A DNA stretch of 64,000 nt from an uncultured Clostridia bacterium (GTDB lineage: Bacteria > Bacillota > Clostridia > Christensenellales > UBA1242): NCBI GenBank assembly GCA_949841045.1, contig CATKXS010000001.1, positions 60,717 to 124,716 on the forward strand. Direction: 5' to 3'. The position numbers were made by a program, and so were the translations under genes. Below, in pieces: positions 32,189-58,691 of this stretch; the stretch's first letter is position 1; every line of letters begins with the position of its first letter. The notes below the pieces were generated by a model. That model saw only the letters and a program-made list of their open reading frames with translations. It did not search any database and was not told where the DNA came from.

Positions 32189-32225
32189 GATTTCCTCTTT
32201 GTTAAAATTTGAATTTTTAAAGATT

Positions 32226-32250
32226 AAAACGAGCAGGATTTGCTCGTTTT
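32226..32250 (-). terminator. intercistronic hairpin (terminator or attenuator-like) between nrdD and nrdG
   Basis: A 10-bp stem, AAAACGAGCA paired with TGCTCGTTTT, with a 5-nt loop. On the reverse strand the stem ends in UUUU followed by AAUCUUU, about 37 nt before the nrdG ATG. Confidence 0.4.
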
Positions 32251-32260
32251 AACCTAAACT

Positions 32261-32372
32261 ATTAAACATTTTTTTTACTTTGTTTGTAATTAAACATTTT
32301 TTTTACATTGTTTGTAATTAAACATTTTTTTTACATTGTTTGTAATTAAGCATTTTTTTTACTTTGTTTGTA
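32261..32372. repeat. 28-bp tandem repeat x4 derived from the nrdD 3' end
   Basis: Units start at 32261, 32289, 32317 and 32345 and read ATTAAACATTTTTTTTAC(A/T)TTGTTTGTA; unit 4 has AAGC. The next period (32373-) is the real nrdD stop and last codons, ATTAAACATTGTGTTTTACACGG. Confidence 0.9.
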
Positions 32373-32373
32373 A

Positions 32374-34692
32374 TTAAACATTGTGTTTTACACGGTCATG
32401 TTCTTCAGCACGTTTTCCGTTATTGAATCTGTCAAGAGTCCCAACAAGGTAACCAGTAATTCTTCTGATTCTTTCAAATTCGCCTTTGCCGTCATGCTCA
32501 TCTCTTCCACAGTAAGGGCAGTGGTCGCCGATAATTCCATTATATCCGCAAACAGGGTCTCTGTCAATTGGGTGGTTGATTGCACCATAACCAATTCCTT
32601 TTTCTTTCATATGTCTGATAATTCTCTCAAATGCATCAAGGTTTTGAGATGGGTCGCCATCAAGTTCAATATATGAAATGTGACCGCCATTGCAAAGTGC
32701 ATGGAATGGAGCTTCAAGGTCAACTTTCTTTTCAGCGCTGATTGGATAGTATACAGGGACGTGGAAGCTGTTTGTATAATAATCTCTGTCAGTAATTCCT
32801 TTGATAACGCCATATTTGTTTTTGTCAATTTTGATAAATCTTCCGCTTAAGCCTTCGGCAGGAGTTGCGATAACTGAGAAGTTGAGTTTGTATTTATCTG
32901 CCATTTTGTCAGCGAAGTCACGCATGTATTTCACAATGTCGTAACCAATCTGCCATGATTTTTCGCTTTCGCCATGGTGTTTACCAGTAAGAGCAACAAG
33001 TGCTTCAGCAAGTCCGATAAAACCATAGGTGAGTGTACCATGTTTAAGAATTTCAGCAACTGAGTCGCCTCTTCCAAGTTTATCAGAGTCAATCCAAACA
33101 CCTTGTCCCATAAGGAAAGGATAGTTGTAAACATGTTTAGATTGTTGAATTTTAAATCTATCTAGAAGCTGGTCAGTAACAAGCTCAAGCATTTCATCGA
33201 GGCGAGCATAAAACTTCTTCAAATCGCCTTTAGCATCAATTGCAATACGAGGAAGGTTGATTGAAGTGAATGAAAGATTTCCTCTTCCGTATGTAATAGA
33301 CCTTTCTGGGTCATATACGTTTGCCATAACTCTTGTACGGCAACCCATATATGCGACTTCTGTCTCAGGGTGACCCTCTTTATAATATTCAAGGTTGAAT
33401 GGAGCGTCAATGAATGAGAAGTTAGGGAACATTCTCTTAGCAGAGCATGCAATAGCCTCTTTGAATAAGTCATAGTTAGGGTCGCCTGGGTTGTAGTTGA
33501 CGCCTTCCTTAACTTTGAAGATTGAGATAGGGAATATAGGAGTTTCTCCATTTCCAAGACCTTCTTCAGTTGCTTTAAGGAAATTTCTGATAACCATTCT
33601 TCCTTCTGGTGAGGTGTCTGTACCAAAGTTCAATGATGAGAATGGCACTTGAGCACCAGCACGAGAGTGCATTGTGTTGAGGTTATGAACAAGCGCTTCC
33701 ATAGCTTGGTGAGTTGCGCTGTCTGTTTCTTTAAGACTTGTTTTAGTTGCAAAGTCTTTAATCTTATTATATAGTTCATCATTAATATCGCTAAATGCCC
33801 CTCTTTCAGCTTTGTCATAAGCTTTGTTTTCTGCAAGCGTAGGGTAAACGCCTTTTTCATTTTCGATATTTTTAATTTTTTCGCAAACTTCTTCTTCAGT
33901 TAACGCTCCTGCCTCTTTGAGAACATAAGCTTTTGCGAAGTTTGTTCTATAAATCTTTTTGTATGTCTTCATAACGCCAGGTGCACACCCAAAGTCAAAG
34001 TTTGGTACGCTTTGTCCGCCATGTTGGTCATTTTGGTTAGCTTGAATGGCGATGCAGACAAGGGCAGCGTAAGTTCTGATGTCGTTAGGTTCTCTTATGT
34101 AGCCATGTCCTGTGTGAAAACCGCCTTTGAAAAGACTTAATACGTCAATTTGGCAACAAGTTTCAGTGAGAGTGTAGAAATCAAAGTCGTGAATATGAAT
34201 GTCTCCACTTTGGTGAGCTTTTGCCTGCTCTGGTGCAACAATAGCTTTTGTGAAATAGTTTTTTGCCGATTCTGAACCAAATTTAAGCATAACCCCCATT
34301 GGTGTATCACCATCAATGTTTGCGTTTTCACGTTTAAGGTCAACGTCTTTTGCATCACTGTTGTTGATTTTATCAAAAGTTTTCATCAAATTGGAATTAA
34401 GTTCTCTTGCAATGTTACGTTTGTTTCTATAAAGTATGTAAGCTTTTGCAACGTCATCGTGACCTTTTTTCATAAGCACACTTTCAACAATGTCTTGAAT
34501 TTCTTCAACTGTTGGAACAGCGCCGTCCTGATATTTTTTATCAAGTTCGTCTGCAACCGCGCTAGCAAGTTTGTGAGCAAGCTTAAGTTCACGGTCTCCA
34601 ACTGCATTCATTGCTTTAGAAATGGCAGTTTCAATCTTTTCAAGGTCGAAGGCTGTAAGTCTTCCGTCACGTTTCATAATGTTTTTTACCAT
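32374..34692 (-). CDS. nrdD: anaerobic ribonucleoside-triphosphate reductase
   Basis: I trimmed the track ORF to ATG 34692, which has an AAAGGAG RBS. It has an ATP-cone N-terminus (VKNIMKRDGRLTAFDLEKIETAISKA), a C-terminal Zn site (CGYNG...CPYCG) and the glycyl-radical motif RRITGYL. Confidence 0.95.
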   Translation of the reverse strand: MVKNIMKRDGRLTAFDLEKIETAISKAMNAVGDRELKLAHKLASAVADELDKKYQDGAVPTVEEIQDIVESVLMKKGHDDVAKAYILYRNKRNIARELNSNLMKTFDKINNSDAKDVDLKRENANIDGDTPMGVMLKFGSESAKNYFTKAIVAPEQAKAHQSGDIHIHDFDFYTLTETCCQIDVLSLFKGGFHTGHGYIREPNDIRTYAALVCIAIQANQNDQHGGQSVPNFDFGCAPGVMKTYKKIYRTNFAKAYVLKEAGALTEEEVCEKIKNIENEKGVYPTLAENKAYDKAERGAFSDINDELYNKIKDFATKTSLKETDSATHQAMEALVHNLNTMHSRAGAQVPFSSLNFGTDTSPEGRMVIRNFLKATEEGLGNGETPIFPISIFKVKEGVNYNPGDPNYDLFKEAIACSAKRMFPNFSFIDAPFNLEYYKEGHPETEVAYMGCRTRVMANVYDPERSITYGRGNLSFTSINLPRIAIDAKGDLKKFYARLDEMLELVTDQLLDRFKIQQSKHVYNYPFLMGQGVWIDSDKLGRGDSVAEILKHGTLTYGFIGLAEALVALTGKHHGESEKSWQIGYDIVKYMRDFADKMADKYKLNFSVIATPAEGLSGRFIKIDKNKYGVIKGITDRDYYTNSFHVPVYYPISAEKKVDLEAPFHALCNGGHISYIELDGDPSQNLDAFERIIRHMKEKGIGYGAINHPIDRDPVCGYNGIIGDHCPYCGRDEHDGKGEFERIRRITGYLVGTLDRFNNGKRAEEHDRVKHNV

Positions 34693-41166: not shown

Positions 41167-41473
41167 GGAGGCTTAGGCAGATTATTGCGGAACAATTTTG
41201 ACTGGTGATTTCAACCTGCTTAACTATAAAATGTGGCTAAGCCTCTTGCGGAACAGAAAAAACTAAGATTGTATATACTTCAAAAAACAAAGTGGCTAAG
41301 CCACACGATAAAAAGCGAATAATACGCGCGGATAATCTGCGGAATGAAACGAGTTTAAAATAGTAATATACTTTACGATAAAAAAGCAGATAATCTGCAA
41401 AAAGCGGATAATCTGTGGAACAGAATAAATTTAATATTGAAATATACTTTACGATAAAAAGCGGATAATCCGC
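41167..41473. repeat. palindrome-rich degenerate tandem repeat region
   Basis: It contains 13-bp odd-centred palindromes: GTGGCTAAGCCAC 41292-41304, GCGGATAATCTGC 41328-41340, GCAGATAATCTGC 41386-41398, GCGGATAATCTGT 41404-41416 and GCGGATAATCCGC 41461-41473. ATATACTT(T)ACGATAAAAAGC units begin at 41273, 41366 and 41442. T(G/C)(C/T)GGAA(C/T) follows four of the motifs. GAGGCTTAG (41168-41176) is complementary to CTAAGCCTC (41237-41245). Confidence 0.85.
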
Positions 41474-41502
41474 TTGGTTAAAAATTAAAAATATAGTATA
41501 AT
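41474..41502 (+). promoter_or_regulatory. promoter placed for a leaderless mRNA of the first YugP-like gene
   Basis: TTGGTT (41474-41479), a 17-nt spacer, then TATAAT (41497-41502), then atagtt and ATG 41509. No SD is present. Confidence 0.45.
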
Positions 41503-41508
41503 ATAGTT

Positions 41509-44570: not shown

Positions 44571-44770
44571 AAAAACAAAAAATCCCTACTGCTAACTAAG
44601 CAATAGGGGCGAGAGGATGCCTCACGCTGTTCCACCCTAATTCATAACTTAGACTTCAAATAAACTTCGCATTTCTTCATTTATTTTCAGTTTTAAGTCA
44701 CCTTCATTATGTCTTTACGCCGACACGCGTTAAGTTCGGGAGTTGCCAATTCCGTCATCACTATAAAAGT
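44571..44770 (-). promoter_or_regulatory. T-box riboswitch leader (glycine) with terminator
   Basis: The reverse strand carries the T-box sequence AATTAGGGTGGAACAGCGTGAGG (44642-44620). It also carries the terminator CCCTATTGCTTAGTTAGCAGTAGGG (44608-44584) followed by ATTTTTTGTTTTT, and a 5' UGAUGA GA-motif. The bulge UGGA fits the U73 discriminator of bacterial tRNA-Gly. Candidate specifier codons are GGC (44721-44719) or GGU (44702-44700); I cannot choose between them. Confidence 0.8.
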
Positions 44771-44803: not shown

Positions 44804-45376
44804 TTACTTTATTATTTCAAAATCATTGTAATCATTTATATTTTGATACTTAGGGTCATAATTTGTCTTAATTGTATCATTTGCTTCTTGTTTTTCTTTA
44901 AATTCGGCACGCTTTGCCTTTTTATCCATAGAACCTGCCACACTAAAAACAGTGATTAATGTTATTAATGGAGGAGGCAGGGCAATCCCCAGTGCTGTTC
45001 CGAGAGTTTTAAGAATGTGTGCATCGTAAAAATTGTTGTATTTTTCCTTTTCTTCGGCTGATGCATAATTATCAAAATAGTCATTTTTATCTTTGAGATT
45101 TTCGGTAAGAGAATCGTGTTCGTTTTGAGTAATACTTCCATTATTTAAAGATTCATCATATTCAGCAGTTTTTTCTTCAACATATTCATAATAATTTGTT
45201 TCAGAATGTAAAAAATCGTCAGCTATTTTGTTGCCAATATGAGAAACGGTTATTGTGCTTGCTCCGGTAAGTAATATACTAGCAAAAAGAACGCCCATTA
45301 ATATTGAAGGGCTATCAAGTCGTTTAGCCCATTTTTTGTAATATGCTGATGATTTAAGTTGAGAAAGTGGTTTCAT
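44804..45376 (-). CDS. hypothetical membrane protein (190 aa, two TM segments)
   Basis: It has a TAGGAG RBS and the TM segments ILMGVLFASILLTGASTITV and LGIALPPPLITLITVFSVAG. The loop between them is acidic and Tyr/Asn-rich. Confidence 0.7.
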   Translation of the reverse strand: MKPLSQLKSSAYYKKWAKRLDSPSILMGVLFASILLTGASTITVSHIGNKIADDFLHSETNYYEYVEEKTAEYDESLNNGSITQNEHDSLTENLKDKNDYFDNYASAEEKEKYNNFYDAHILKTLGTALGIALPPPLITLITVFSVAGSMDKKAKRAEFKEKQEANDTIKTNYDPKYQNINDYNDFEIIK

Positions 45377-45518: not shown

Positions 45519-45584
45519 TTTGGAGCGACTTAGTCGCTATGCGAACATTCGTTCAAATGTTCATACACTAAATGTTTGGTGGAG
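45519..45584 (+). repeat. 66-nt repeat element, copy B (contains CGAAC-N4-GTTC), forming the 5' UTR of the 191-aa gene
   Basis: TTTGGAGCGACTTAGTCGCTATGCGAACATTCGTTCAAATGTTCATACACTAAATGTTTGGTGGAG. Its GGTGGAGG end serves as the SD for ATG 45590. Confidence 0.85.
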
Positions 45585-45589
45585 GAAAA

Positions 45590-46165
45590 ATGATAAGAGA
45601 GTTTAAATCTTTAGATGGGATTTCTACGCTGAAGCTTGAATTTTCCAAAGTAGATTTATTGGGGACAGAAAATATTAAAGAAACGCTTTCTGATATAATT
45701 GACGGAAACATTTTCTATGCGAAAAAAGATATAAGCGTCTATGTTTCTAACGCAAGACAAAGGGAGAGTATTGACTCTAGACAAAGATTTAGTTTGAATG
45801 GCAAAGTATACCTATTGACAGAAGAAAAATATAAAGTTACCGAAATGGACGAAGAGGCTTATTCAAAAGTAATTCATTATACAGACGGGCAAGAGGCTCT
45901 CGTAAAGGGTGGAAGATTCGACCAAGATTACGAGCTTGAGGTGAAAGATTGGGATTTGTTTAAACCAATTGATACACCAAAAAAGTTTTCTACCATTACA
46001 AAAAATGTGTATTTCAAAACGCCTTGGGGTGAGCGTGTGTTTGCTCCAAAAGGTAGCAAAATTTGCATTGAATATGCTGAGACGCGTGACTTTTTCATTG
46101 TGACAAATTCACTTTTCAAAGTTGCCTATCAAAAAATGGGTGACACTTATAAATCTTTTGATTAA
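45590..46165 (+). CDS. hypothetical protein (191 aa)
   Basis: I trimmed the track ORF to ATG 45590, which lies 5 nt after GGAGG. It looks soluble and I recognise no motif. Confidence 0.7.
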   Translation: MIREFKSLDGISTLKLEFSKVDLLGTENIKETLSDIIDGNIFYAKKDISVYVSNARQRESIDSRQRFSLNGKVYLLTEEKYKVTEMDEEAYSKVIHYTDGQEALVKGGRFDQDYELEVKDWDLFKPIDTPKKFSTITKNVYFKTPWGERVFAPKGSKICIEYAETRDFFIVTNSLFKVAYQKMGDTYKSFD

Positions 46166-46218
46166 AAAATTAATAAAAGAACATAAAAAATATTCACCAT
46201 TTGAAAGGTGGATATTTT

Positions 46219-46413
46219 GGGTATTATACCCTTTTTTATTATATGAAATATCTTTTTTTGTATACTTTTCAACGTATTCCTGAGGGCATTATGCCCTTTT
46301 TATTATGTGAAATAATTTTATTTTGAATATTTTTCGACATATTCTTGAGGGCATTATGCCCATTTTATTAAACAAATATTGTTATTTAGAATACTTTTCA
46401 ACGTATTCTTGGT
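46219..46413. repeat. 65-bp tandem repeat x3, each unit a terminator hairpin plus a copy of the ABC-F gene 3' end
   Basis: The hairpins are GGGTATTATACCC 46219-46231, GGGCATTATGCCC 46284-46296 and GGGCATTATGCCC 46349-46361. Each is followed by a T-run on the + strand. The period is exactly 65 bp, and the fourth period is the real coding end of the reverse-strand ABC-F gene. Confidence 0.9.
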
Positions 46414-47962
46414 ATGTGCCTGTAAAATCTATAATTTTATTTTCATCGACAATATCTATAATTCTGTTTGCAACAGTCTCAATAATTTCTTGGTCATGTG
46501 TTGCAAATAGAAGGTTGCCTCTGAAGTTTAACATTCCTTTATTGAGGGCAGTGATAGATTCAAGGTCGAGGTGGTTTGTTGGCTCGTCGAGGAGAACGAG
46601 GTTGCCTTGTTCAAGCATCATTTTTGCGAGCATACAGCGTACGCGTTCACCACCAGAAAGCACGTTTGCAGGCTTGAGGTTTTCTTCGCCAGTGAAGAGC
46701 ATTCTTCCAAGCCAACTTCTTATATATGTTTCGTTTTGGTCAGTTGAAAATTGTCTGAGCCAGTCAACAATTGAAGATGTATTTCCTTCAAAATATTCAT
46801 TGTTATTTTGAGGTAAATTTGTCATTTTTATTGTCTTTCCGACGAACACTTGACCGTGGTCTGGTTTTTCATTTCCGAGGATAATATTGAATAAAGTGGT
46901 TAAAATTTGGCTATTTTTTGCAAAAAAAGCCACTTTTTGCCCCTTTTCTATGTTAAAACTGAGATTTTTGAACATTCCAGACTTGGTAAGGTGGTCAACT
47001 TTCAAAATTTCTTTTCCAATCTCTTGAGTGTATTCAAAGTTGATATAAGGATACTTCCTTGAAGAAGGTTTAATGTCTTCAATAGTAAGTCTTTCGAGTT
47101 CACGTTTACGGCTTGTAGCCTGCTTTGATTTTGAGGCATTTGCAGAGAAACGGGCAATGAATTCTTTAAGTTCTTTGGCGCGTTGTTCTGCCTTTTTATT
47201 TTGGTCTTTCATCTGTCTTAAAATAAGTTGACTTGACTCATACCAGAAATCGTAGTTTCCGATGAACATGTTGATTTTGCCATAGTCAACGTCGCAAATG
47301 TGAGTGCAGACTTTGTTTAAAAAGTGACGGTTGTGGGATACGATAATGACAATGTTTTCAAAGTCTAAGAGATACTCTTCAAGCCAGCGAGAGGTTTTAA
47401 AGTCGAGGTTGTTTGTAGGTTCGTCCAAGATAAGAATATCAGGATTTCCAAAAAGTGCTTGAGCAAGCAAAATTTTAACTTTGACTTTTGCGTCAAGACT
47501 TCCCATTGTCTGTTCAAAGAGAGCCTCTTCAATTCCTAAGTTTTGAAGTAAACTTTTTGCTTCGCTTTCAGCTTCCCAGCCACCAAGCTCAGCAAATTCA
47601 GTTTCAAGTTCTCCTGCGCGAATTCCGTCAGCTTCGGTAAAGTCCTCTTTCATATAGAGTTCATCTTTTTCCTTTTGAACCTGCATAAGTCTTTTGTGGC
47701 CAAGTAGGACGGTGTTTAAAACTGTTTCATTGTCGTATGCGTTTTGGTTTTGGGCAAGAACAGACATGCGTTCACCAGGCGTGATAAAAATTTCACCGGT
47801 GTTAGGTTCGATTTCCCCAGTGATTATTTTGAGAAGGGTGGATTTTCCAGCGCCATTTGCGCCGATAACTCCATAACAATTACCTTTTGTAAATTTAAGG
47901 TTAACGTCTTTATAAAGCACTCGTCCACCAAAGGCGAGTGAGATGTTTGATACTTGTAACAT
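46382..47962 (-). CDS. ABC-F family ATPase (YbiT/YkpA-like, soluble tandem-NBD protein)
   Basis: 526 aa with two NBDs and no TM domain. NBD1 has Walker A GANGAGKST, and there is a charged inter-domain linker. NBD2 has the signature LSGGERVR and Walker B LVLLDEPTNHLD. The NBD2 Walker A is degenerate (AKNSQILTT). It has an AAGGAG RBS. Confidence 0.9.
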   Translation of the reverse strand: MLQVSNISLAFGGRVLYKDVNLKFTKGNCYGVIGANGAGKSTLLKIITGEIEPNTGEIFITPGERMSVLAQNQNAYDNETVLNTVLLGHKRLMQVQKEKDELYMKEDFTEADGIRAGELETEFAELGGWEAESEAKSLLQNLGIEEALFEQTMGSLDAKVKVKILLAQALFGNPDILILDEPTNNLDFKTSRWLEEYLLDFENIVIIVSHNRHFLNKVCTHICDVDYGKINMFIGNYDFWYESSQLILRQMKDQNKKAEQRAKELKEFIARFSANASKSKQATSRKRELERLTIEDIKPSSRKYPYINFEYTQEIGKEILKVDHLTKSGMFKNLSFNIEKGQKVAFFAKNSQILTTLFNIILGNEKPDHGQVFVGKTIKMTNLPQNNNEYFEGNTSSIVDWLRQFSTDQNETYIRSWLGRMLFTGEENLKPANVLSGGERVRCMLAKMMLEQGNLVLLDEPTNHLDLESITALNKGMLNFRGNLLFATHDQEIIETVANRIIDIVDENKIIDFTGTYQEYVEKYSK

Positions 47963-48204: not shown

Positions 48205-48251
48205 ATAAATAGTACATTTTGATTTAACCAAAAAAAGAAATGAGGTGTCAA

Positions 48252-51200
48252 ATGAGAAAAAAGAATAGCGAAAAGAAGAAAGACTCAAAGTTGAGGATTA
48301 AATGGAAAACCTGGATGACGGTTGTGACCGTTATTGCGGTTGTATTTTTAATCAGCGGAGCAACCGTGCTTGGCGTATATTTGTCAGGTGGTTTTAACGA
48401 AAAGGTTGTTTATCCAGAGAGCATTGAATTCGATTATGGAAATAACCGCTTTGTAAATAATCAACTTGAAGTAGAGGAAGACTTTACACTTACTATCACC
48501 ACGCCAACGAATCAAGTCACTCGTGATACTTTGACATTGTCTTTTGCAGGTGATGGAATTATTGAATCGAGAGATGGCAAAATTTCAAATGGTTCTATCG
48601 AAGTCCCTCAAACTGTTACCATTGGCAGACCTTTCACTGTGCACCTTTTGACTAAAAACTTGGTTGATGAGAATGGGACGCCAGTTCTTGATTTAAATGG
48701 AAATTACATAGACTGGATTGCAGGCGGCATTTCAACACTTGTAGCTCAGTCGCAAAACATTCAAATTCCTTCAATAAGCGTTCGTATCGCAGTAGACGTT
48801 CCTGTCTATGACACTCAAACTATTATTTACAATTCTCTAGGTGAAGAGGTTACTCAGGTTGTTAAAAATGAAAGTTTTACTGTTAAGACAAAATTCTTGC
48901 CTGCAAACAGCGAATATATGTACAGTGATGACCTAAGTAGTAAGGCTGAAAACGAAAAACGCAAAAAGACCTCTTTCTATGAAGCAGTAAGCACAGAAAA
49001 TCTTACAACTGTCTATGACAGCAAAACTGAAGTTCATTTTGTGGCAAAGAATGTCATTGATGACGGAATTACAATCAACAATTATACTTTTAAAAATGCA
49101 ATCAGTCAGCTTAACTATGAGGCAGAAAATGAAGAGACGACAAATGGCGAACTTTATTATAACGATGCTTTGAGATATTTAAGTGACAATTCAAGCATAG
49201 CAAAACTTTCACGTGCGGTTGTTTCAATCGGAGATGAAAGTGTAGGCAACTTTACAGTTACAAAAGAAGGGCAAAACCTTTCAATGAAAGTGGAAGAGCC
49301 ATTAAAGTTATATCTCAACAATTATCCTTATGAGGCACTCGCCGATTATCTTGGTATAAATATCTATTCAACCTCAGGAAGAATTCTTGATAACCTTCTT
49401 CCAAACATAGTTTTAAGTTTTGATTATAACGGCAAAGACCCAACACTCGGTGATGACAAAATACTTGAAATCAGCGGTGGAGAGGTGATTGACTTTGAAG
49501 GCACGCGTTACTATAAACCTTTCTCAGAGGGAATAAACAACTTCCGCTATTCTTACTGGAACATTTCAGCTAAGGAAGAGGGGGATGTAACAGTATTTAT
49601 TTCACTTCTTTTGAATGATGACACAACTCTTTTTGAGCAGGTGGCTGGCACTCCATTTAGAAGAAATGTTAGACTAACAATAAAAAAACATGAGGAGCTT
49701 CCTCCAGTTTGGCTTGACCAAACTAGAGAAGATGTACTTCTTGACTATACTGTTGTAGAAGGTGTAAGCACGTTGGCTCCTAAGACAATCGACCTTGGAA
49801 GCAAGGTGGAAGTCCCAAGCGAGAATATTTACAAAGATTACGTATTCTTTGCTTGGTTTGGAAATGGACAAATTGAAGACTACACTGAGAAAGCAAATTC
49901 TATTCTAAGAAATGGTTATATTAGAGAAAGGTCAAAAATTTATGAAACAACAAGTGGAAGGCTTACACTTTTCGCACTTGACGGAACGAGCATAACTCTA
50001 TATGATACGGGTGAATTTTCAATTTATGTTGCCACTATCAGACCAGAACTTACTGATGACGGCTATTATCAAATCGTTGAACTAGCAAGTGGGTCAAAAA
50101 GTGTTGTTGTAAAAAAATCACTTTACACAGACTCAGTAGAGGAGTTTACACTTGATGTTGCAGATTTCCCTTCGATGGGAGCAAATGAAATCAGCATAAA
50201 TCAGGGCAGTGAATCAACCTTTGGAATAAGTTTCATTGTTGGTGCAACATCTGTACCAGTTTTCAAAGATGAATTCCAAAAAGGATTTATGACTCCAAAA
50301 ATTTTGGATATTGCAGGAAACGATATTACAGATTACTTCAACTTTAATGAAGGCACTCTTACTACTGGTGACGAATCCGAAAATGCAACTTTAGAATATA
50401 GAGTAAGCGCAAAACCTTCTGTTCAACTTGAACAAACATTAGGTGTTTATCTTGGTTATGTTGCACTTAATTATAATAACGGCGAAAATGACATTACTTG
50501 GGAAATGCCTCTAGGAAGCGACCAAAGAATAAATGTTTATAAACCACAAGCTTCACTTATTGAACTTAGTGACAATGAGATTAAAAATGCTTTGCTTGGT
50601 GGCGGAGATATAGAAGTTGAACAATACTTAACTTCGGCCGGCGTATTTAATACAACGATAGTTGTTTCACTTCCAAATGGTAATGAAAGAAGATTCTCAA
50701 ATGTTAGCGATTTTGTAAATGCTTTTGTAGGGGTTGATGGTGCTCTTATAAAAATTACCGACCAAAAATCCAAAACAGACACTTTGACTGGGCAATGGAA
50801 TTTTGTTATAAGCGGAGATGAGACAGGCGCTATTGAACTCTCTTCTGATGGCAAGTCATTTACATTTAAGAATACCGATTCTGAAGATTTTGTTCCCGTT
50901 TCACTTCTTCTTCAAAGTACAGACGGAAACGCAACCGTAAAGGGGAATAATAACCAAAATCTCGTTATAAACTTTAAAGTAAATTCAACTGGAATTACAA
51001 AAATAGCGTATGATAACGAAACATTAAAAACATATAATTCAATCCTTTCAGCACCAACTGAAGAGACAGCAAAAGCTGTTGTAAGTAAATATGGCGCAAA
51101 AGGAAATGGCTCAGAGGTTATCACCTTAAAGAGTTTAATTAATTTCTATTGCATGGATAATAGTGGCAATGATATGGAATATACAAGAGTTTCATTTAAA

Positions 51201-54200
51201 TTCAATCCACAATATTATTCAAGTGCAAATCTTTCAGATACTCAAATTGTTGACCTTTATGGCCCAGACGGCATGCTTACGCTCTATAATGGCGACAATG
51301 TTTTGAGCTTTAGCGGAGATTATTCTGCTGAGAATATTAGAAGTACTCTTGCTTCAGCAATAATTTCAAATATTAAAATCAACAAAAACTTTGCTTCTTA
51401 TCATACTGTTCAACTTATGGTTACAGATGAAAGTGGTGCAGTAAATACAAGCTTTGACCTTGAACTTCGTCCAAATTATGTAGTAACTAGAGAAAATTAT
51501 TCTCAATATGCTGGCTCAAACTTTAGGCTTGCAAACACTGTTTCAAACCTAAATTTAGATGGCATACAAGATAGAATTGATACTCTATTCGACCCAAATG
51601 CAACTTATTATGTAGTGCTTGATAATATTGCTGGAAGTTATAAACTTGTTAAAAGCACGCAAGCAGTTATTGGAGCTATAGGAACATACAATCCTGGCAG
51701 TTCAACAATTACATTTGCAGACTTCTGGGATACTGAGCAAAAGATTTTCACAGTTCAATTCCAACCAGAAGGAGAAAACACATTTGCTCTTAATCATTCA
51801 ATAACCTTTACAATCAACCGCGACCTCGTGGTAACAGACGAAAAGGGTGTGTTCTTCGTACTTGGTCAAGCAATGGAAATTTCTGACTTTGCAAAGATTA
51901 CAAGACATGACGGAAGTCCAATAAACAACTTGAGCGTATCTTATACCTTTGAAGATTATCTTATGATGAATGGCTCAAGAGTTGTAAGAAAGGAAGACAG
52001 TGATTTCTTCTTTGATTATAATCAGATTTCACTCCAAACAAAACTTACAATTTCAAATGGAAACACTATATTTGATGAATTTAATGTTACAATTAAACTT
52101 TATGACACAGATGACGTTTACAATTTCCTTGCAAGTAAATTTACAATTGACACAAACAATGAGAGCATGAAAGGTCTTTCAGCTCGCAGCCAAATTGTCA
52201 ATAATGGAAAAGAAGATGTAAATTATATTGTTTTCCCAGCAAACGTTGGTGCAAGCTGGAATGTTGCAAACATTGACGATTACAAACTTCAACCAATGAT
52301 GGTTGACCATGACAACAATAAACTGCAGAACTTCTATGAAGTTGTAAATACTCGCATCACATTCAAAATGCAAAATCTTCACATTCTTCTCACTGGCTTA
52401 AATGATAATACAAGATATATAGCTGTCAGACTTCAAGCAAACAATGTTGTACTTGCGACAATGAATATTCCTGTCATCATTTCTCAAATTGGATTTGACA
52501 GTGTTGTTTATGAAAATGGAGAAATTGCTGATAATAGAGTTCTTGAAACAGCGCTCACTCGTCCTGAAACATTGATAGCAAATGGTATCTATAATGAGAT
52601 TACAGCTGGTCAACTTTCAGAAATATTGACTCAATATGATATGTCAGTTTATAGAAAAGAAAGTGAAAATAATGGAAGTGGCGAGGCCGAAGTTATTTGG
52701 AATGGAAATATAGAGAAGGGCGGTCTTTACATGCTTAAAGACTTCACTCCTTCATTTGAGACATATCTTCTTGACAATAACTATGATAATTATGCAGGTT
52801 TAGTAAAGACAAGACAAGTTACTAGAGAAAATGCAAGTCTTTTACTTAACCACTTAAATGATAACGTATCGGACGCTTATATCGCATTTATTTTTACAAT
52901 TAATAAGAGTGGAAGTGGCAACAGCCAATCATTCTATTATGTATTGAAAGTTAAACCTGATGTTAAAGTGGAAAATTCTCTTTATGCTTATAATGGCAAT
53001 GTTGAATACATTAAAGGTCAAAGCGATTATAATAATGAAATTGACCTCGAAGCACTTTTCAATAATACGACATTAAATGAAGGGTTAAAGAGATTTATGG
53101 TAAGTAAAACTCTTACCATGCAGAGCAGTTATGAACTTGAACTTAACGTAACGACAAGAAGTAGCATAAGATTCACTTTTGGTGAAGATGAGATTTTAAG
53201 AAGTTATGGAGTGGGAACAGTTACTGTTGACTTAAATGATTATTTTAAAGGTGCACTAGTAGACGGCGCTGAAATTGAGATTACTATCATTGAAGGCGAT
53301 GCTACAATCAGCTACAAAGGCGTTAAAGTATTCAAAACACTTAAGTTTACAAATAAAGTCACATCAGTTGTGGTAGGTGAAAAGACTTACACAACTCAAG
53401 ACGCCTGGAAAGATACAATTGCTCTATCATTCTCAGACGATGGAAGAAAACTTATCTATAGACCTCTTATTACAAATAGAATTACATTTACAATTGAGCG
53501 AAGCTATATAGGTGGCGGTGAAGATGACCTCGCGGTCATTGGTGGAGTTCAAACCTTTACATTTATTCTCAATGATGACGAAGAAATTCTTGCAGTCAAC
53601 TTTGGAAATGAAGAAAGTACAGACTATGTAGTTGAAATCAAAAATGGTAGCATTTCAAGTTATGAAATGAATATAAACCTTATCAAGAAAGAAATGTCTG
53701 GCTCTACAATCGGAATTACTATTTACGATAGACTTAACATAAGTCTTATTAGTGGAGGCGAAAATGTAGCTGGATATACTTATGACAATTCTAGGGAGAG
53801 TCAGGGTAAATTTACTCTCAATCTTAAAAATTATATCAATTCTGACAAAAAAGTAGTGTTTGCAGTGTATACAGCTCAAGGCTATCTTGCAACTCTTACT
53901 TTTGAACTTAAAGCAAATGTTACTTATTATCCAAATGAAAGTACAACTACTCTCGAAGGTGGAAAAGATTATATCTTAAATACACAAGAATTTATGAAGC
54001 TTACTGTTCCTTCTAAAACTGAAGAGGGAAGAGAGGAAATTCTTACAAGTGGACACTTTAATATAACCGATGTAACAATCTCTGGCACTGGCAAAGACTT
54101 TGTCAAGATTAGCGGAAATAATATGGAAATTGCCGACCTTATTTCAGATAAAGAGGTTACAATTACTTATACAGTTACATTCACTTCTCTTGCTTCTGAA

Positions 54201-57200
54201 TTTGGAATTGAAGATTTGACATTCATTTTCTCTCAAACTTATGTTTTGAAACAAAATGTCAGTGCAAAGACTTCTGTCGCATCTTCAGTAGAAACAATCG
54301 CAGGACAAAATCATGTTATTGATACAACAAGTCTTTATAATATGATTACAGGAGAAAGTCTGCGCGATGACACCAAAATAAAAATTGAAGCTTCATCTTC
54401 AAGCCCAGCTTTTGGTGGAATTACAGATAATATTATATCGACAAACTATATTGCAAGCAGTGTAATGCTTGAACTTACATTAAACGTTTCAATTTCAAAC
54501 GATGATAAGACTTGGCAAAACTTTGCACTTTCTTATTCATTCGCAGTTTTACCTGCAGTAAAATTTGAGACAAATTATCCAATTCCAAACTCAAATGGAG
54601 AAATGGAATTTGAATATATTGAAAACGATTCAACTTTTGCAAACATTTTGACAAATTTCTTGTCAAATAATGCAATCTTTAGCGATAAGGCTCGTATTGA
54701 AGCATTTGAAGCAGTAACTGATAATGGAAAGGTAAGTTATCAAACCACTTCATCACCAATCACTGCTGAAAACTTAAGTATACTTGTTAACTCAAGAACA
54801 AACGCAACAGTGCTGGCTGATGGAAGAATTATTGGCGACAATGAACAAATTCCAAATGGAGCAGAAGTCAAATTCTCTCGCGGTTCAACCAGTGGAAATG
54901 ACGCAGTTGTAGAACTTGGAATTACTTACAAAGCGGTTTATATTACCTATAAAATCAAGATTATTAGCAATTCAATTACGCTTACTCCTCAATCGGTAAC
55001 AAACTATAGCCTCTCTGGTTCTTACACAGCTGAGGGCGGAAATGACACAGTATCTTATGAAAAGATATATATAGATAAGACTTCATCAAACAATATATTT
55101 GCTGGTGAAAGACTTGTTTATGCTCAGCTTAGCGATGTTATGGCAACTTATGCTAATGAATACTATTTCGTATTTAGAAAGGTTGTCGAAAGTGAAATTA
55201 ATGGCGACCAAGAAAGTGATGTCTACAATTATTACGCTTCTTATCCAATTTACATTGCTTCAAGTGACCAAAGTAATACTCGTTATTATGACCTTGGAAT
55301 TTCATTTGCAGGCAAGGAGTTTGTAGGTGCTTATGAAGCCTCATTATTTGAAAAGAGACAAATAAGCATCAATGGAGAAGAAAGGCAATTAAAAATTAAA
55401 GAAATAATTGTTTCAGAAAATGAACAACAAGTTGTTGAAAGTGACATTACATCAGAAGATAAACTTCCAGCAAACTTAGCTTATACTTTATTTAAACTTG
55501 ATGAAGAAAAGCCTATTGTTAAACTTGCAAATAGACTTCAACTCATCTATGGTGTTGACGAGCAGGGAGAAGATATTCTTGTAGATTATGAAAAATATTC
55601 TTACTTAGGCGAGTCACTTATTAAAGAGTTCAATCTTACTAAGGCAAACACAGTTCTCAACGAAATAAGAAAAGAGCCGGTTCAAATTACTCTTTCAAGA
55701 AATGACGGTTCTGGCAAAAGCCATAACTTTAGTGTAAACTATTATTATATGGCAAGCATTGATGTCGATGTGGAAGAAAAGGCGACAACCCTTGCAAATA
55801 CTGTACCAGTTGAAGTTAACAAAGAAGAGTCAAGTATAAATTCTCTTCTTGGAATCAAGCATCCTACAACAGGAAGAATAATTTCAGCTTCTGATTTTAC
55901 AATGGGTGATAGACTTACTTTCAATATAATCTATTCTTCTGTTGAGACTTTAAGGGGAGAAAATTCCTCTGTTGACGAAAATTATAGAGATATAGTTGAT
56001 TCATACTACACGAAATTGAAAATTAATTCTTTCAATCGCTATGTAGATGATAAAGGTATTGCTCCTACAGATGGTAAAAATATTTACCTATATAGAAGTG
56101 CGATAAGCAATTCAAGTGATTGCGTTTATGATTACAGTATAATGCCATTTGGTGCAAAAAACCTTGGTGATTATGTACTTGGTGAAATTGTTTATAGCGT
56201 AGGTGAATTTGAACTTAAATTCTATGTAGTATTCCATATCAGTCCAGACTATGTTGTTAAATTTAAGGGCAATGTTGAAAATTCAGTTACAGAAGCAGAT
56301 GGTGCAATAATTTCAAACTTTGGTGATAACCTTATTGAAACTATTGCTGAAACAAAACTTGATAATGGAAGTATTGTATATGAAGATTTCATCTTGACTG
56401 GTGAAAAGGGTGTTGTTTCAATAATTCATGATAACAGTACTGGCGAGAAGTATGAACAGGCAGTAAGAAACTTTAAGCTTTATATGCCTCTTAATACTAT
56501 TGTTGAATCAAGAACATATAATAAGCAGGATAATATAGAACAAAAGATATTCTATGATAATAATACTGCTGTAAACGCGAATTGGGAATACAACGAAGAG
56601 ACTTTAAGCTATGATTATAAACTTGCTCAAGTATCTCCATATACCGATGTGACATTCACAAAAGTCAAAGAAGTAATTTTCGCAGAACAATACTATATGA
56701 TTGAAGGCGTTGACCCTTACTATTATACTTACAGATTGTATTTCAAACTGGCGGTTACAAAGGGCACACCAAGAATCTTAGGAAGTATGTCAATTGTCGA
56801 AGATGAACTATTCGATTTTGGTGTTCAATATCAACAAGTGACAATGAATTCAGCGGGAAAACGTCAAGAAGATAGCAAAAATATTTATACTTACAATATG
56901 AATGCATCTTCTCTTCGTACGCCAGCTTCAACAGATGGAAATGTGAAACTTCTTAACTTCACAGGTATTGAAGCATGGGAATTTGACCTTGATTATACTA
57001 ACGAACATGTAAATGCAGTATTGAACTTGCCTTCAATCCTTGATTATAATACCGATGAAAAAACGGAAAATAAACAGGTTTATAAACCTGGTGCAACCGA
57101 GATTGATAATGGAGAATATGAGGAGGGTACAGGAAGAACCGGTCACATTGAAGTGCTTGACGGTGAGGAATACTTCAGTTATCCATCACTTGATTACATT

Positions 57201-58691
57201 TCAATTGATAGCGTTGCATTGTATGACCCTAACACTGACACAATTTTAAGTGAAGTACTTACAAATGGTGGAGAGAAGGGCATCGCGTCTCCAAGAGAAG
57301 ACGCAAATTCATCTTCTTGGGTATTTGCAACAAACGGAGCTGATAAATTTGGAAGAATTGTAACAGAAACGGTTGGCGATGAAACAGAGACAGAAGAGCC
57401 TGTTACTATTGAAAGTGGCAACAGAGTTAGAGGTGTCTATGGCATGAAAGAAGATGGCAAGACTTATAATGACAATCTTTGGAAGATGCCAAGACTAAAA
57501 GAGTCTTCAATATTCAATGGTGCACCATCAGTCAAATTAAGACTTGTTGTAACTCTTAAATATTATGACGAAAAGAGCGGAATTACCGAATTTTGTGATT
57601 GTCCAGTTGAAATAACTGTAGTCAAGAAGGCAAATGTTGTTTCAGGTGATGATAGAGTTGTTAGAGATGGTCAAACTTTTGCAGTTGAAGATAAATTAAT
57701 TATTCCAGAAACACTTGAAGATGACGTAAGAATAACAAAATATCTTAACGATACGCTCGAAGTGCTTGTTCCAGCAAATCAAACAATAAGCGTTGATATT
57801 GAATTGACAAGACCAGGCCGCGAAGAGCCATTTACAGGCAGAATATCTCTTCCTGAGTCGGGCATTGCAGCTAGCTATGCAAGAACGTCTTATGTATCAA
57901 TTTCAAATGTACTTGGAATAACAGTAGCGCAGGGAGATACACTTAGAATTACAAATGTGTCAAACAATTCAACAGAATTCTACTATATTACAAATAGCGG
58001 TGAAAACAATGCTATTGTAAATAACAAAATTCTTGGAAGCGAAATTGCTGACAAACACTTTACTATTTCACAAATATTCAATGACGTTGTATATGTTGAA
58101 AATGCTTCGCTTTTAGGCTCTAGTGCAAGTTATGGCATTACCAAATCTTATATTGCTCTTTGCCAATATACTGCTACAGAAAAAGATTCTGAGGGCAATG
58201 ATGTACTTATTGATAATCATGAATATGCTTATCAAGTAAATGCTCCATATGTTGTTACAGGTTATATCTACAAGCTTGAAAGAAATTACAATTATGAAAT
58301 CGGCTTTGAAATTGAAACTACTTTTGAAAATGGACAATGGACAAAGGCAGAACTTTCAAATTGGGAAACAGCTTATAATCTCATTTTAGGCGAAACTAAG
58401 AATGGTGGAGGAATATCTAACGGTCAAATTGATGTAGACTTCAAGATTACTAGAGATAACTTCAACTACTTTAGATTCTCAAGTGCAACAGCTGGCGTGG
58501 GAGAAACAAGCGTTGGTAAGGCGATTGTCAACTCTGACGGTAGCATTCAGCTTGACCCAAGCTTTACAAAAGACCAGTATATGAAACTTGTGCTCGAACT
58601 TGCTGTTTCTGGCGCGGACAGAGATATAACAAATGACAGCGATGCAACTTATCTCAGACTTGATACTTTAAATCTTGGTGTAAAATCATAA
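48252..58691 (+). CDS. giant membrane-anchored surface protein (about 3,480 aa), no recognisable domains
   Basis: The frame is open from 48240 to 58691. I prefer ATG 48252, which follows GAGGTG (48242-48247). The N-terminus is MRKKNSEKKKDSKLRIKWKTW followed by the single TM MTVVTVIAVVFLISGATVLGVYL. The rest is Asn/Thr/Ser/Val/Tyr/Glu-rich and almost Cys-free, with no further hydrophobic segment. Confidence 0.9.
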   Translation: MRKKNSEKKKDSKLRIKWKTWMTVVTVIAVVFLISGATVLGVYLSGGFNEKVVYPESIEFDYGNNRFVNNQLEVEEDFTLTITTPTNQVTRDTLTLSFAGDGIIESRDGKISNGSIEVPQTVTIGRPFTVHLLTKNLVDENGTPVLDLNGNYIDWIAGGISTLVAQSQNIQIPSISVRIAVDVPVYDTQTIIYNSLGEEVTQVVKNESFTVKTKFLPANSEYMYSDDLSSKAENEKRKKTSFYEAVSTENLTTVYDSKTEVHFVAKNVIDDGITINNYTFKNAISQLNYEAENEETTNGELYYNDALRYLSDNSSIAKLSRAVVSIGDESVGNFTVTKEGQNLSMKVEEPLKLYLNNYPYEALADYLGINIYSTSGRILDNLLPNIVLSFDYNGKDPTLGDDKILEISGGEVIDFEGTRYYKPFSEGINNFRYSYWNISAKEEGDVTVFISLLLNDDTTLFEQVAGTPFRRNVRLTIKKHEELPPVWLDQTREDVLLDYTVVEGVSTLAPKTIDLGSKVEVPSENIYKDYVFFAWFGNGQIEDYTEKANSILRNGYIRERSKIYETTSGRLTLFALDGTSITLYDTGEFSIYVATIRPELTDDGYYQIVELASGSKSVVVKKSLYTDSVEEFTLDVADFPSMGANEISINQGSESTFGISFIVGATSVPVFKDEFQKGFMTPKILDIAGNDITDYFNFNEGTLTTGDESENATLEYRVSAKPSVQLEQTLGVYLGYVALNYNNGENDITWEMPLGSDQRINVYKPQASLIELSDNEIKNALLGGGDIEVEQYLTSAGVFNTTIVVSLPNGNERRFSNVSDFVNAFVGVDGALIKITDQKSKTDTLTGQWNFVISGDETGAIELSSDGKSFTFKNTDSEDFVPVSLLLQSTDGNATVKGNNNQNLVINFKVNSTGITKIAYDNETLKTYNSILSAPTEETAKAVVSKYGAKGNGSEVITLKSLINFYCMDNSGNDMEYTRVSFKFNPQYYSSANLSDTQIVDLYGPDGMLTLYNGDNVLSFSGDYSAENIRSTLASAIISNIKINKNFASYHTVQLMVTDESGAVNTSFDLELRPNYVVTRENYSQYAGSNFRLANTVSNLNLDGIQDRIDTLFDPNATYYVVLDNIAGSYKLVKSTQAVIGAIGTYNPGSSTITFADFWDTEQKIFTVQFQPEGENTFALNHSITFTINRDLVVTDEKGVFFVLGQAMEISDFAKITRHDGSPINNLSVSYTFEDYLMMNGSRVVRKEDSDFFFDYNQISLQTKLTISNGNTIFDEFNVTIKLYDTDDVYNFLASKFTIDTNNESMKGLSARSQIVNNGKEDVNYIVFPANVGASWNVANIDDYKLQPMMVDHDNNKLQNFYEVVNTRITFKMQNLHILLTGLNDNTRYIAVRLQANNVVLATMNIPVIISQIGFDSVVYENGEIADNRVLETALTRPETLIANGIYNEITAGQLSEILTQYDMSVYRKESENNGSGEAEVIWNGNIEKGGLYMLKDFTPSFETYLLDNNYDNYAGLVKTRQVTRENASLLLNHLNDNVSDAYIAFIFTINKSGSGNSQSFYYVLKVKPDVKVENSLYAYNGNVEYIKGQSDYNNEIDLEALFNNTTLNEGLKRFMVSKTLTMQSSYELELNVTTRSSIRFTFGEDEILRSYGVGTVTVDLNDYFKGALVDGAEIEITIIEGDATISYKGVKVFKTLKFTNKVTSVVVGEKTYTTQDAWKDTIALSFSDDGRKLIYRPLITNRITFTIERSYIGGGEDDLAVIGGVQTFTFILNDDEEILAVNFGNEESTDYVVEIKNGSISSYEMNINLIKKEMSGSTIGITIYDRLNISLISGGENVAGYTYDNSRESQGKFTLNLKNYINSDKKVVFAVYTAQGYLATLTFELKANVTYYPNESTTTLEGGKDYILNTQEFMKLTVPSKTEEGREEILTSGHFNITDVTISGTGKDFVKISGNNMEIADLISDKEVTITYTVTFTSLASEFGIEDLTFIFSQTYVLKQNVSAKTSVASSVETIAGQNHVIDTTSLYNMITGESLRDDTKIKIEASSSSPAFGGITDNIISTNYIASSVMLELTLNVSISNDDKTWQNFALSYSFAVLPAVKFETNYPIPNSNGEMEFEYIENDSTFANILTNFLSNNAIFSDKARIEAFEAVTDNGKVSYQTTSSPITAENLSILVNSRTNATVLADGRIIGDNEQIPNGAEVKFSRGSTSGNDAVVELGITYKAVYITYKIKIISNSITLTPQSVTNYSLSGSYTAEGGNDTVSYEKIYIDKTSSNNIFAGERLVYAQLSDVMATYANEYYFVFRKVVESEINGDQESDVYNYYASYPIYIASSDQSNTRYYDLGISFAGKEFVGAYEASLFEKRQISINGEERQLKIKEIIVSENEQQVVESDITSEDKLPANLAYTLFKLDEEKPIVKLANRLQLIYGVDEQGEDILVDYEKYSYLGESLIKEFNLTKANTVLNEIRKEPVQITLSRNDGSGKSHNFSVNYYYMASIDVDVEEKATTLANTVPVEVNKEESSINSLLGIKHPTTGRIISASDFTMGDRLTFNIIYSSVETLRGENSSVDENYRDIVDSYYTKLKINSFNRYVDDKGIAPTDGKNIYLYRSAISNSSDCVYDYSIMPFGAKNLGDYVLGEIVYSVGEFELKFYVVFHISPDYVVKFKGNVENSVTEADGAIISNFGDNLIETIAETKLDNGSIVYEDFILTGEKGVVSIIHDNSTGEKYEQAVRNFKLYMPLNTIVESRTYNKQDNIEQKIFYDNNTAVNANWEYNEETLSYDYKLAQVSPYTDVTFTKVKEVIFAEQYYMIEGVDPYYYTYRLYFKLAVTKGTPRILGSMSIVEDELFDFGVQYQQVTMNSAGKRQEDSKNIYTYNMNASSLRTPASTDGNVKLLNFTGIEAWEFDLDYTNEHVNAVLNLPSILDYNTDEKTENKQVYKPGATEIDNGEYEEGTGRTGHIEVLDGEEYFSYPSLDYISIDSVALYDPNTDTILSEVLTNGGEKGIASPREDANSSSWVFATNGADKFGRIVTETVGDETETEEPVTIESGNRVRGVYGMKEDGKTYNDNLWKMPRLKESSIFNGAPSVKLRLVVTLKYYDEKSGITEFCDCPVEITVVKKANVVSGDDRVVRDGQTFAVEDKLIIPETLEDDVRITKYLNDTLEVLVPANQTISVDIELTRPGREEPFTGRISLPESGIAASYARTSYVSISNVLGITVAQGDTLRITNVSNNSTEFYYITNSGENNAIVNNKILGSEIADKHFTISQIFNDVVYVENASLLGSSASYGITKSYIALCQYTATEKDSEGNDVLIDNHEYAYQVNAPYVVTGYIYKLERNYNYEIGFEIETTFENGQWTKAELSNWETAYNLILGETKNGGGISNGQIDVDFKITRDNFNYFRFSSATAGVGETSVGKAIVNSDGSIQLDPSFTKDQYMKLVLELAVSGADRDITNDSDATYLRLDTLNLGVKS

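Follow-up and report, generated by a model that had tools for sequence, protein, structure and literature searches.

A copy-number-variable tandem repeat at the stop codon of an ABC-F gene in an uncultured Clostridia bacterium

The stretch of DNA analysed here, called the window throughout, is a 64-kb piece of contig CATKXS010000001.1 from the metagenome-assembled genome (MAG) GCA_949841045.1 of an uncultured Clostridia bacterium, and all coordinates are window positions unless a contig is named. An ABC-F ATPase gene on the minus strand and a fast-evolving gene on the plus strand converge in it, and between them lies a tandem array of three 65-bp units, the innermost of which contains the end of the ABC-F gene itself. 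An earlier reading made from the letters of the window, here called the original prediction, had described this array and suggested that a specific process acts at the 3' ends of genes in this genome. It had also called the convergent gene a 191-aa gene, which is correct from an internal start; from the first ATG the gene encodes 197 aa. The window was compared with two contigs of the same species which were found by exact-protein look-up: L001 (Logan, SRR32020728) and L162 (GCA_948730295.1, CAPWXO010000067.1). No further same-species contig was found, either by exact-protein look-up of the ABC-F protein and of a neighbouring 190-aa protein, or by a search with the C-terminal 240 aa of ABC-F.

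The array and its copies of the gene end

Read directly, the array consists of three 65-bp units set head to tail from 46219 to 46413. Tandem Repeats Finder reports it at 46219-46408, with a period of 65, 2.9 copies, 81% matches and a score of 245. Each unit holds a GGGYATTATRCCC hairpin, a T-run that follows the hairpin on the plus strand, and, on the minus strand, a copy of the nine codons with which ABC-F ends; 30 of the 65 nt of a unit are ABC-F's own coding end. In the whole window the motif GGGYATTATRCCC has exact matches at 46219, 46284 and 46349 only, where 0.09 matches would be expected by chance and none of 100 shuffles reached 6. The 13-nt palindrome is GGGTATTATACCC at the first of these positions and GGGCATTATGCCC at the other two, and the stem of unit 1 carries a compensatory change from C-G to T-A. 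The three hairpins at a 65-bp period stand as originally described, though unit 1 keeps the exact period only through two 1-nt indels that compensate each other. The units are strictly contiguous, with no DNA between the copies, and the 52-nt stretches that separate the palindromes share homology with one another and with the end of ABC-F. The two internal junctions are the same (GCCC-T-CARGAA), and the units of the window are 17-25% diverged from one another (75-83% identical). When the array region was compared with Rfam, there was no match at the gathering thresholds and one chance-level miRNA match only.

The ABC-F peptide has the C-terminus QEYVEKYSK*. In the window the functional end, which belongs to unit 3, reads CAA GAA TAC GTT GAA AAG TAT TCT AAA TAA. 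The copy in unit 2 reads CAA GAA TAT GTC GAA AAA TAT TCA AAA TAA, with four mismatches that leave the peptide and the stop unchanged, and the copy in unit 1 reads CAG GAA TAC GTT GAA AAG TAT ACA AAA AAA, with four mismatches that turn Ser into Thr and remove the stop. A search of the window recovered both minus-strand copies as they had been described, one differing synonymously only and one lacking its stop, and found no further copy of the last 30 nt of ABC-F with nine or fewer mismatches. The unit 2 copy has no open reading frame (ORF) of its own: an in-frame TAA stands three codons upstream and is followed by no start codon.

The original prediction held that four synonymous changes out of four are not what neutral decay would give, and calculation bears this out. 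Among the single-base changes that can be made to the real 30-mer, the synonymous share is 17% with uniform substitution, rises to at most 31% when transitions are strongly favoured, and is 26% when transition and AT bias act together. Across neutral substitution models, the probability that all four changes are synonymous is 0.0008-0.009. AT-biased third positions, which had been named as the alternative, were also checked. AT pressure fails to predict the pattern because only two of the seven G/C positions in the 30-mer are third positions.

The same pattern is seen against the other strains. The functional end reads CAA GAA TAC GTT GAA AAA TAC TCA AAA TAA in L162 and CAG GAA TAT GTA GAA AAA TAC TCA AAA TAA in L001; all three functional ends are distinct, and they differ at six codons, synonymously throughout. 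Compared with these three ends, unit 2 has four of four, three of three and three of three differences that are synonymous. It also has the commonest codon at every position but the valine among 33 distinct orthologous ends. Judged from its sequence, unit 2 behaves like a functional allele, the fourth one, and looks like a former gene end which has been displaced. This agrees with the earlier suggestion that the copy may once have been the functional end in another allele, the ends of the three strains and unit 2 differing from one another synonymously only.

The gene end also holds an inverted repeat, AGAATAC-N8-GTATTCT. Selection for a hairpin within the gene end was considered as its cause and rejected, since codon covariation between GAATAC and GTATTC is not significant in the 33 distinct orthologous ends (p = 0.19), and the palindrome is treated as a by-product of the codons for E-Y...K-Y-S.

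The original prediction had proposed comparing strains for the number of units and for the copy that is joined to the ORF, and both turn out to differ. The intergenic region of L001 is 87 nt long and contains one unit; in L162 there are at least two, which meet at the same junction (TATTCCTGA-GGGCATTATGCCC), and in the window there are three. All six units were aligned (three from the window, two from L162 and one from L001). Unit 1 of the window and the distal unit of L162 are identical at 50 of 53 positions outside the hairpin, and they have the same decayed end, ...TAT ACA AAA AAA, in which the stop is lost. The spacer of unit 3 is the outlier, with 60-70% identity to all other units, which are 79-96% identical among themselves. 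The single unit of L001 consists of the left part of L162's distal unit (GTGCATTATGCTT-TTTTAATTAT) and the right part of L162's functional unit (GAAATATCTTTATTTTGAGTATTTTTC). Because it is chimeric for the two units of L162, it points to contraction by unequal crossover.

At L162:1213-1264, exactly inside the ABC-F array, ten Ns are followed by the Illumina adapter GTGACTGGAGTTCAGACGTGTGCTCTTCCGATCT. This is a scaffolding and contamination artefact, and the assembly broke inside the repeat.

Hairpins, flanking diversity and neighbouring DNA

The array had been described as three stacked terminators for the convergent gene, and this description holds in part. A consensus scan finds all three array hairpins terminator-like on the plus strand, where each is a G+C-rich stem-loop directly followed by a U-run, as the T-runs of the original prediction imply. 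The hairpins themselves are weak, with stems of 5-7 bp and energies of -5.4, -9.6 and -7.7 kcal/mol, and two of them do not clearly outdo shuffled sequences. The original prediction did not mention a stronger hairpin that sits between the 197-aa gene and the array, has T-runs on both strands (Table 1), and is conserved in L001 and L162. Going by these features it is likely the true terminator of both convergent genes. The array-equivalent hairpin in L001 and in the distal unit of L162 is essentially unfolded (-0.8 kcal/mol), so the array hairpin is not conserved even within the species.

On the minus strand, A-runs precede the array palindromes and no U-runs come after them, and for this reason ABC-F transcripts are predicted to read through the array as far as the stronger hairpin. 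The predicted ABC-F 3' untranslated region (UTR) should be about 165-195 nt long in the window, versus some 35-65 nt in L001. The array hairpins could serve as weak back-up terminators for the 197-aa gene on the plus strand. We infer that the extra hairpins are at most auxiliary plus-strand terminators. A role of the array as a stacked insulator is possible but unsupported, and the array is most likely neutral.

Diversity between the strains is concentrated on one side of the array. Overall, the flanking genes differ by 0.3-3% in DNA between strains. On the side of the 197-aa gene the difference is 0.3-1.2%, without an increase towards the array, and the flanks as a whole differ by 0.3-1.5%, or by 0-1% once the last 220 nt of ABC-F are set aside. 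In the last 720 nt of ABC-F, 24 of the 29 sites that vary among the three strains fall in the last 220 nt, compared with five in the next 500 nt (Fisher p = 4e-9). Third positions account for 26 of the 29, and between L001 and the window there is no amino-acid change. Sites private to L001 lie mainly 19-84 nt from the ABC-F stop, and sites private to the window lie at 7-13 and 145-220 nt from it, those in the farther group being five T-to-C and one C-to-T. At the 3' end of nrdD, where the window has another array, there is no comparable clustering of variable sites. From its sequence, the mosaic in ABC-F suggests short recombination tracts imported from diverged alleles.

A separate short mosaic patch was noticed inside the 190-aa gene, where L162 and the window differ at 8 positions in 25 nt within surroundings that are about 99% identical.

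Table 1. Features of the array, of the genes beside it and of other arrays in the window
Feature	Position	Strand	Remarks
ABC-F ATPase gene	46382..47962	-	526 aa; Pfam ABC_tran x2 and ABC_tran_Xtn; 3' end is the functional repeat copy
Hypervariable 3' stretch of ABC-F	46382..46601	-	strain-private tracts
Unit 3, joined to the ORF	46349..46413		hairpin GGGCATTATGCCC 46349-46361; divergent spacer 46362-46381; functional end 46411-46382 (-)
Unit 2	46284..46348		hairpin GGGCATTATGCCC 46284-46296; spacer; intact untranslated pseudo-end 46347-46318 (-)
Unit 1, distal, decayed	46219..46283		hairpin GGGTATTATACCC 46219-46231; pseudo-end 46282-46253 (-)
Bidirectional intrinsic terminator-like hairpin	46186-46218	both	-13.2 kcal/mol on +, -8.8 on -; T-runs on both strands
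Convergent gene	45572..46165	+	197 aa; fast evolving; no assigned function
190-aa gene, neighbour of the 197-aa gene	44804-45376	-	
Mosaic patch in the 190-aa gene	45275-45299		
T-box leader upstream of glyQS	44602-44767	-	
ORF immediately upstream of ABC-F	48240-58691	+	3483 aa; opposite strand to ABC-F
nrdD array	32261-32392		28-bp units, 4.7 copies
Hairpin after the nrdD array	~32213-32240		terminator
Third array	41328-41470		~76-bp modules bounded by 13-nt palindromes; no gene end
Palindrome-filled stretch	41167-41508		between two + strand genes

Orthologues of the ABC-F protein, 66-95% identical, occur in 80 species-level MAGs of uncultured gut Clostridia, several of whose records are labelled Christensenellales or Christensenellaceae, and in metagenome contigs the best identity is 93%. 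An array downstream of ABC-F was found in none of the roughly 88 orthologous loci of related species that were inspected. Most related loci have a recognisable terminator hairpin of their own downstream of ABC-F, and in related species these two convergent genes are separated by one bidirectional terminator. A search of 165 related loci (about 735 kb) found the palindrome motif in none but the same-species contig L162, and, L162 aside, neither these 165 loci nor the remainder of the window hold another copy of the 65-bp unit.

The 197-aa protein has no Pfam match. A word-based protein search gave one cluster of three near-identical sequences, which are the window's own and those of the strains studied here, and tblastn found syntenic convergent homologues, 30-53% identical, in 11 related species. 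These syntenic homologues mean that the convergent layout is ancestral and that the array alone is new. The idea that the 190-aa and 197-aa genes are the remnant of an island inserted at an attachment (att) site was dropped because of them.

Some observations on the neighbouring DNA are recorded here in their own right. The 190-aa gene has no detectable homologue in the searches made. The T-box leader upstream of glyQS scores 34 bits against an Rfam gathering score of 93 and is missed at the default threshold. Immediately upstream of ABC-F, on the opposite strand, lies a single ORF of 3483 aa. In one related species there is a tandem duplication of 135 bp x 2 with 86% matches just downstream of ABC-F (L030:4302-4578), and it falls in the region that holds the glyQS T-box leader.

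The original prediction also pointed to duplicated gene termini elsewhere, and the array at nrdD is indeed of this kind: it too lies at a stop codon, and it too varies in copy number. Its first partial copy is the last 20 or so nt of nrdD, stop included (...RVKHNV*). The window has 4.7 units, compared with 1.7 in contigs of two other strains (L163:970-1072 and L164:313-415, from ERR4093271 and ERR4093270), which are exactly three units (84 nt) shorter at nrdD.

The modules of the third array were considered as possible homologues of the 65-bp unit and rejected, the 29 mismatches in 65 being background. The stretch around this array is filled with 13-nt palindromes (GTGGCTAAGCCAC twice, GCGAATAATACGC, GCGGATAATCTGC, GCAGATAATCTGC, GCGGATAATCTGT and GCGGATAATCCGC) whose T-runs are on the minus strand, on which no gene comes to an end here. 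This structure recurs in strain L165 with a few substitutions, one of which perfects a stem.

Arrays that are not of low complexity number three in the 64-kb window and two in the 735 kb of related loci (nominal Poisson p = 0.0008), a baseline that is essentially one orthologous region across species and so not a fair genome-wide one. GC skew is positive across the whole window, which places both ABC-F and nrdD head-on to replication, an observation on two cases only. A dif/Xer array at the replication terminus, of the kind left by integrative mobile elements exploiting Xer (IMEX), was rejected, since the skew shows no switch anywhere in the window.

Proposed history and rival explanations

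The array is probably a locus-specific minisatellite, or variable-number tandem repeat (VNTR), which straddles the ABC-F stop and whose spare units are displaced gene ends kept by in-register exchange. Direct observation gives the repeat itself, its variation in copy number between strains, the chimeric unit left by contraction, variation that is synonymous only, and the absence of dispersed copies; the order of events below, including the import of unit 3, is what these suggest to us. The founding event would be one illegitimate duplication of the last 30 nt of ABC-F, a spacer of about 21 nt and the 13-nt palindrome, which would create the junction described above. Since both internal junctions are identical, the third unit would have come from homologous unequal exchange and not from a second independent insertion. 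Later expansion in the window strain and contraction in L001 would have proceeded by unequal homologous recombination or by slippage between units, and exchange may have taken place both within one chromosome and between the alleles of diverged strains.

Because translation ends at the first stop, the unit next to the ORF alone would be expressed, and the other units would be untranslated fossils in the ABC-F 3' UTR. Recombination within the 30-nt coding part would be in register, and any unit could become the functional end or donate sequence to it. Intact units would then have spent most of their history under purifying selection, which would explain why unit 2 differs synonymously only. The window strain would have received a diverged allele (unit 3 and probably part of the last 220 nt of ABC-F), placed before the former end, unit 2. 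Unit 1 would be an older fossil which stayed distal, is common to L162 and has decayed. The argument for displaced ends rests on the shared characters and on the codon-position pattern.

Several points weigh against this history. The strain comparison has three members (the window, L001 and L162), and the unit count of L162 is a lower bound, the gap and the adapter lying inside the array. In 80 genomes and 80 metagenome contigs of relatives, nothing was found that could have donated unit 3 or the divergent tracts of ABC-F. Two of the changes in unit 2, TAC to TAT and AAG to AAA, form a compensatory pair in the inverted repeat of the gene end and are maybe not independent. Over its whole length unit 2 is identical at 43-44 of 53 positions to all units, and it does not group clearly with the functional units of the other strains. 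The diversity in ABC-F could also come from local hypermutation filtered by selection.

A simpler account is that a tandem duplication arose in place and that its spares were always neutral, in which case the four synonymous changes would be due to chance or to AT-biased third positions. In favour of this, tandem duplications running across a stop do no harm and are to be expected, the pattern was singled out post hoc, and a single coupled event in the GAATAC/GTATTC stem may account for two of the four changes. The difference between units 2 and 3 is also not significantly smaller in the gene end (4 of 30) than in the spacer (7 of 21) when taken alone (p = 0.087). What makes this account rather improbable is that the low probability of four synonymous changes holds even under strong transition and AT bias, with so few of the G/C positions being third positions, and that unit 2 is synonymous-only against two further functional alleles too. 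In addition, the units are 17-25% diverged and the flanks about 1%, and a neutral copy of such age should carry non-synonymous changes, as unit 1 does.

That a hairpin-bearing unit repeatedly inserts at the gene terminus and restores the reading frame was part of the original prediction. In its general form, with a small mobile or site-specific element resembling a repetitive extragenic palindrome (REP), a bacterial interspersed mosaic element (BIME), a MITE (miniature inverted-repeat transposable element) or an att site, we regard it as very unlikely. Integrative elements do carry replacement 3' ends of genes, and other 13-nt palindromes with an ATTAT or ATAAT centre fill the stretch at 41 kb. 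The 41-kb modules, however, are not homologous to the unit, and neither GGGYATTATRCCC nor the 65-bp unit has a further copy in the 64 kb or in the roughly 735 kb of related loci, the same-species L162 aside. The units are contiguous and there is no distant second gene end of the sort that an attL/attR pair would give; their junctions are identical and hence were not made independently; and the GC skew shows no terminus, which speaks against exploitation of dif/Xer. The claim of repeated insertion was therefore given up.

It is also unlikely that selection keeps the array as a stack of plus-strand terminators shielding ABC-F from antisense read-through out of the 197-aa gene, a functional claim which would be compatible with a VNTR origin. 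All three GGGCAUUAUGCCC-U5 hairpins have their T-run on the plus strand only, the stem of unit 1 was kept by a compensatory C-G to T-A change, and in related species one bidirectional terminator separates this convergent gene pair. Yet the hairpins are weak (-5.4 to -9.6 kcal/mol) and a strong terminator already precedes them, the L001 hairpin and the L162 copy are essentially unfolded, and neither the hairpin nor the copy number is conserved within the species. An assembly artefact is scarcely credible, whether through collapse or expansion of the repeat or through a chimera of strains in the MAG. The source is a MAG, the L162 assembly did break in the array with an N-gap and an adapter, and a strain mixture could in principle yield a stitched mosaic. 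But units that differ at 17-25% of positions make the junctions unique at typical k-mer sizes, which leaves no k-mer loop, and L162 independently has the junction TATTCCTGAGGGCATTATGCCC and the same decayed distal unit.

As for the specific process at gene 3' ends that the original prediction had suggested, the survivorship of stop-spanning duplications together with slippage at palindromes is enough to explain the arrays, and no dedicated process is required. Tandem duplications that span a stop survive preferentially because they leave the gene intact, and the third array contains no gene end. A more general mechanism can nevertheless be formulated, although we think it improbable: the 3' end of ABC-F, and perhaps the ends of other head-on genes in the lineage, would be a hotspot where replication forks stalled at terminator palindromes trigger both template-switch duplication, giving the arrays, and short-patch, homeologous or error-prone repair, giving the site diversity of 11% in the last 220 nt of ABC-F versus 1% further in.

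Relation to known repeats and what the array means

Among known systems the array is closest to the bacterial VNTRs that are used for typing by multiple-locus VNTR analysis (MLVA). Like them it has head-to-tail units of tens of bp, a number of units that varies between strains, and chimeric units; the unit is within the 10-100 bp range of minisatellites and is repeated in tandem at one locus. It differs from the usual VNTR in what the unit is made of, namely a terminator-like palindrome together with the last nine codons and the stop from a conserved gene of housekeeping type, and in that its units are old and diverged instead of near-identical and include spares with a signature of purifying selection.

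Mycobacterial interspersed repetitive units (MIRUs) are described as tandem units of 40-100 bp that lie between genes, have their frame fixed to the adjacent gene's stop or start, leave that gene undamaged and vary in copy number between strains (PMC12548453; Supply et al. 1997 as cited in PMC3184786). The likeness is a repeat tied to the stop of a flanking gene without harm to it and present in strain-variable copies. MIRUs, however, are one family at many loci and apparently mobile, whereas the unit here comes from the local gene and occurs at a single locus among the DNA searched. REP/BIME sequences and the pneumococcal SPRITE are interspersed palindromes that resemble terminators (PMC3184786). 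They too are small G+C-rich stem-loops with a U-run between convergent genes, and they are sometimes clustered. The unit here differs in that it extends into coding sequence and is not dispersed: neither the window nor the 165 related loci hold the further copies that a REP/BIME, MITE or MIRU family would have. Nor are its boundaries independent of the host gene, whose coding end makes up 30 of its 65 nt.

The displaced ends also recall a different kind of element. Integrative elements such as prophages and islands integrate in the 3' ends of tRNA, transfer-messenger RNA (tmRNA) or protein genes and displace the gene ends. There, as here, the gene acquires a replacement end, and its old end stays behind downstream as a fossil with changes that selection tolerates. 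Here, by contrast, the copies are in tandem, with no element between them and no distant att-like copy. In the window the copies are contiguous, and they do not form an att duplication that flanks DNA encoding a recombinase. The array is also unlike a clustered regularly interspaced short palindromic repeat (CRISPR) locus, its "spacers" between palindromes being homologous to each other. Searches of the literature for an established name for the tandem duplication of gene termini gave general work on VNTRs, MIRUs and REP sequences only.

What lies at the end of ABC-F is an ordinary strain-variable tandem repeat whose history is unusually legible, beside a hotspot of synonymous diversity. It is a worked example of how a repeat that includes a stop codon keeps untranslated spare gene ends which bear a signature of purifying selection, a signature that the spares would carry because the units are exchanged in register. 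Such fossils are open to being misread by annotators and in evolutionary analyses as mobile elements, small ORFs or the trace of an unusual mechanism. The ABC-F and nrdD arrays are also potential strain-typing markers for this species of uncultured gut Clostridia, and they are places where short-read assemblies break, as in the one public MAG contig that is gapped with adapter here. Of all the features, only the cluster of synonymous diversity beside the array might hint at anything broader. If the hotspot mechanism were true, the lineage would generate and recycle alternative gene ends systematically, beyond one accidental VNTR.

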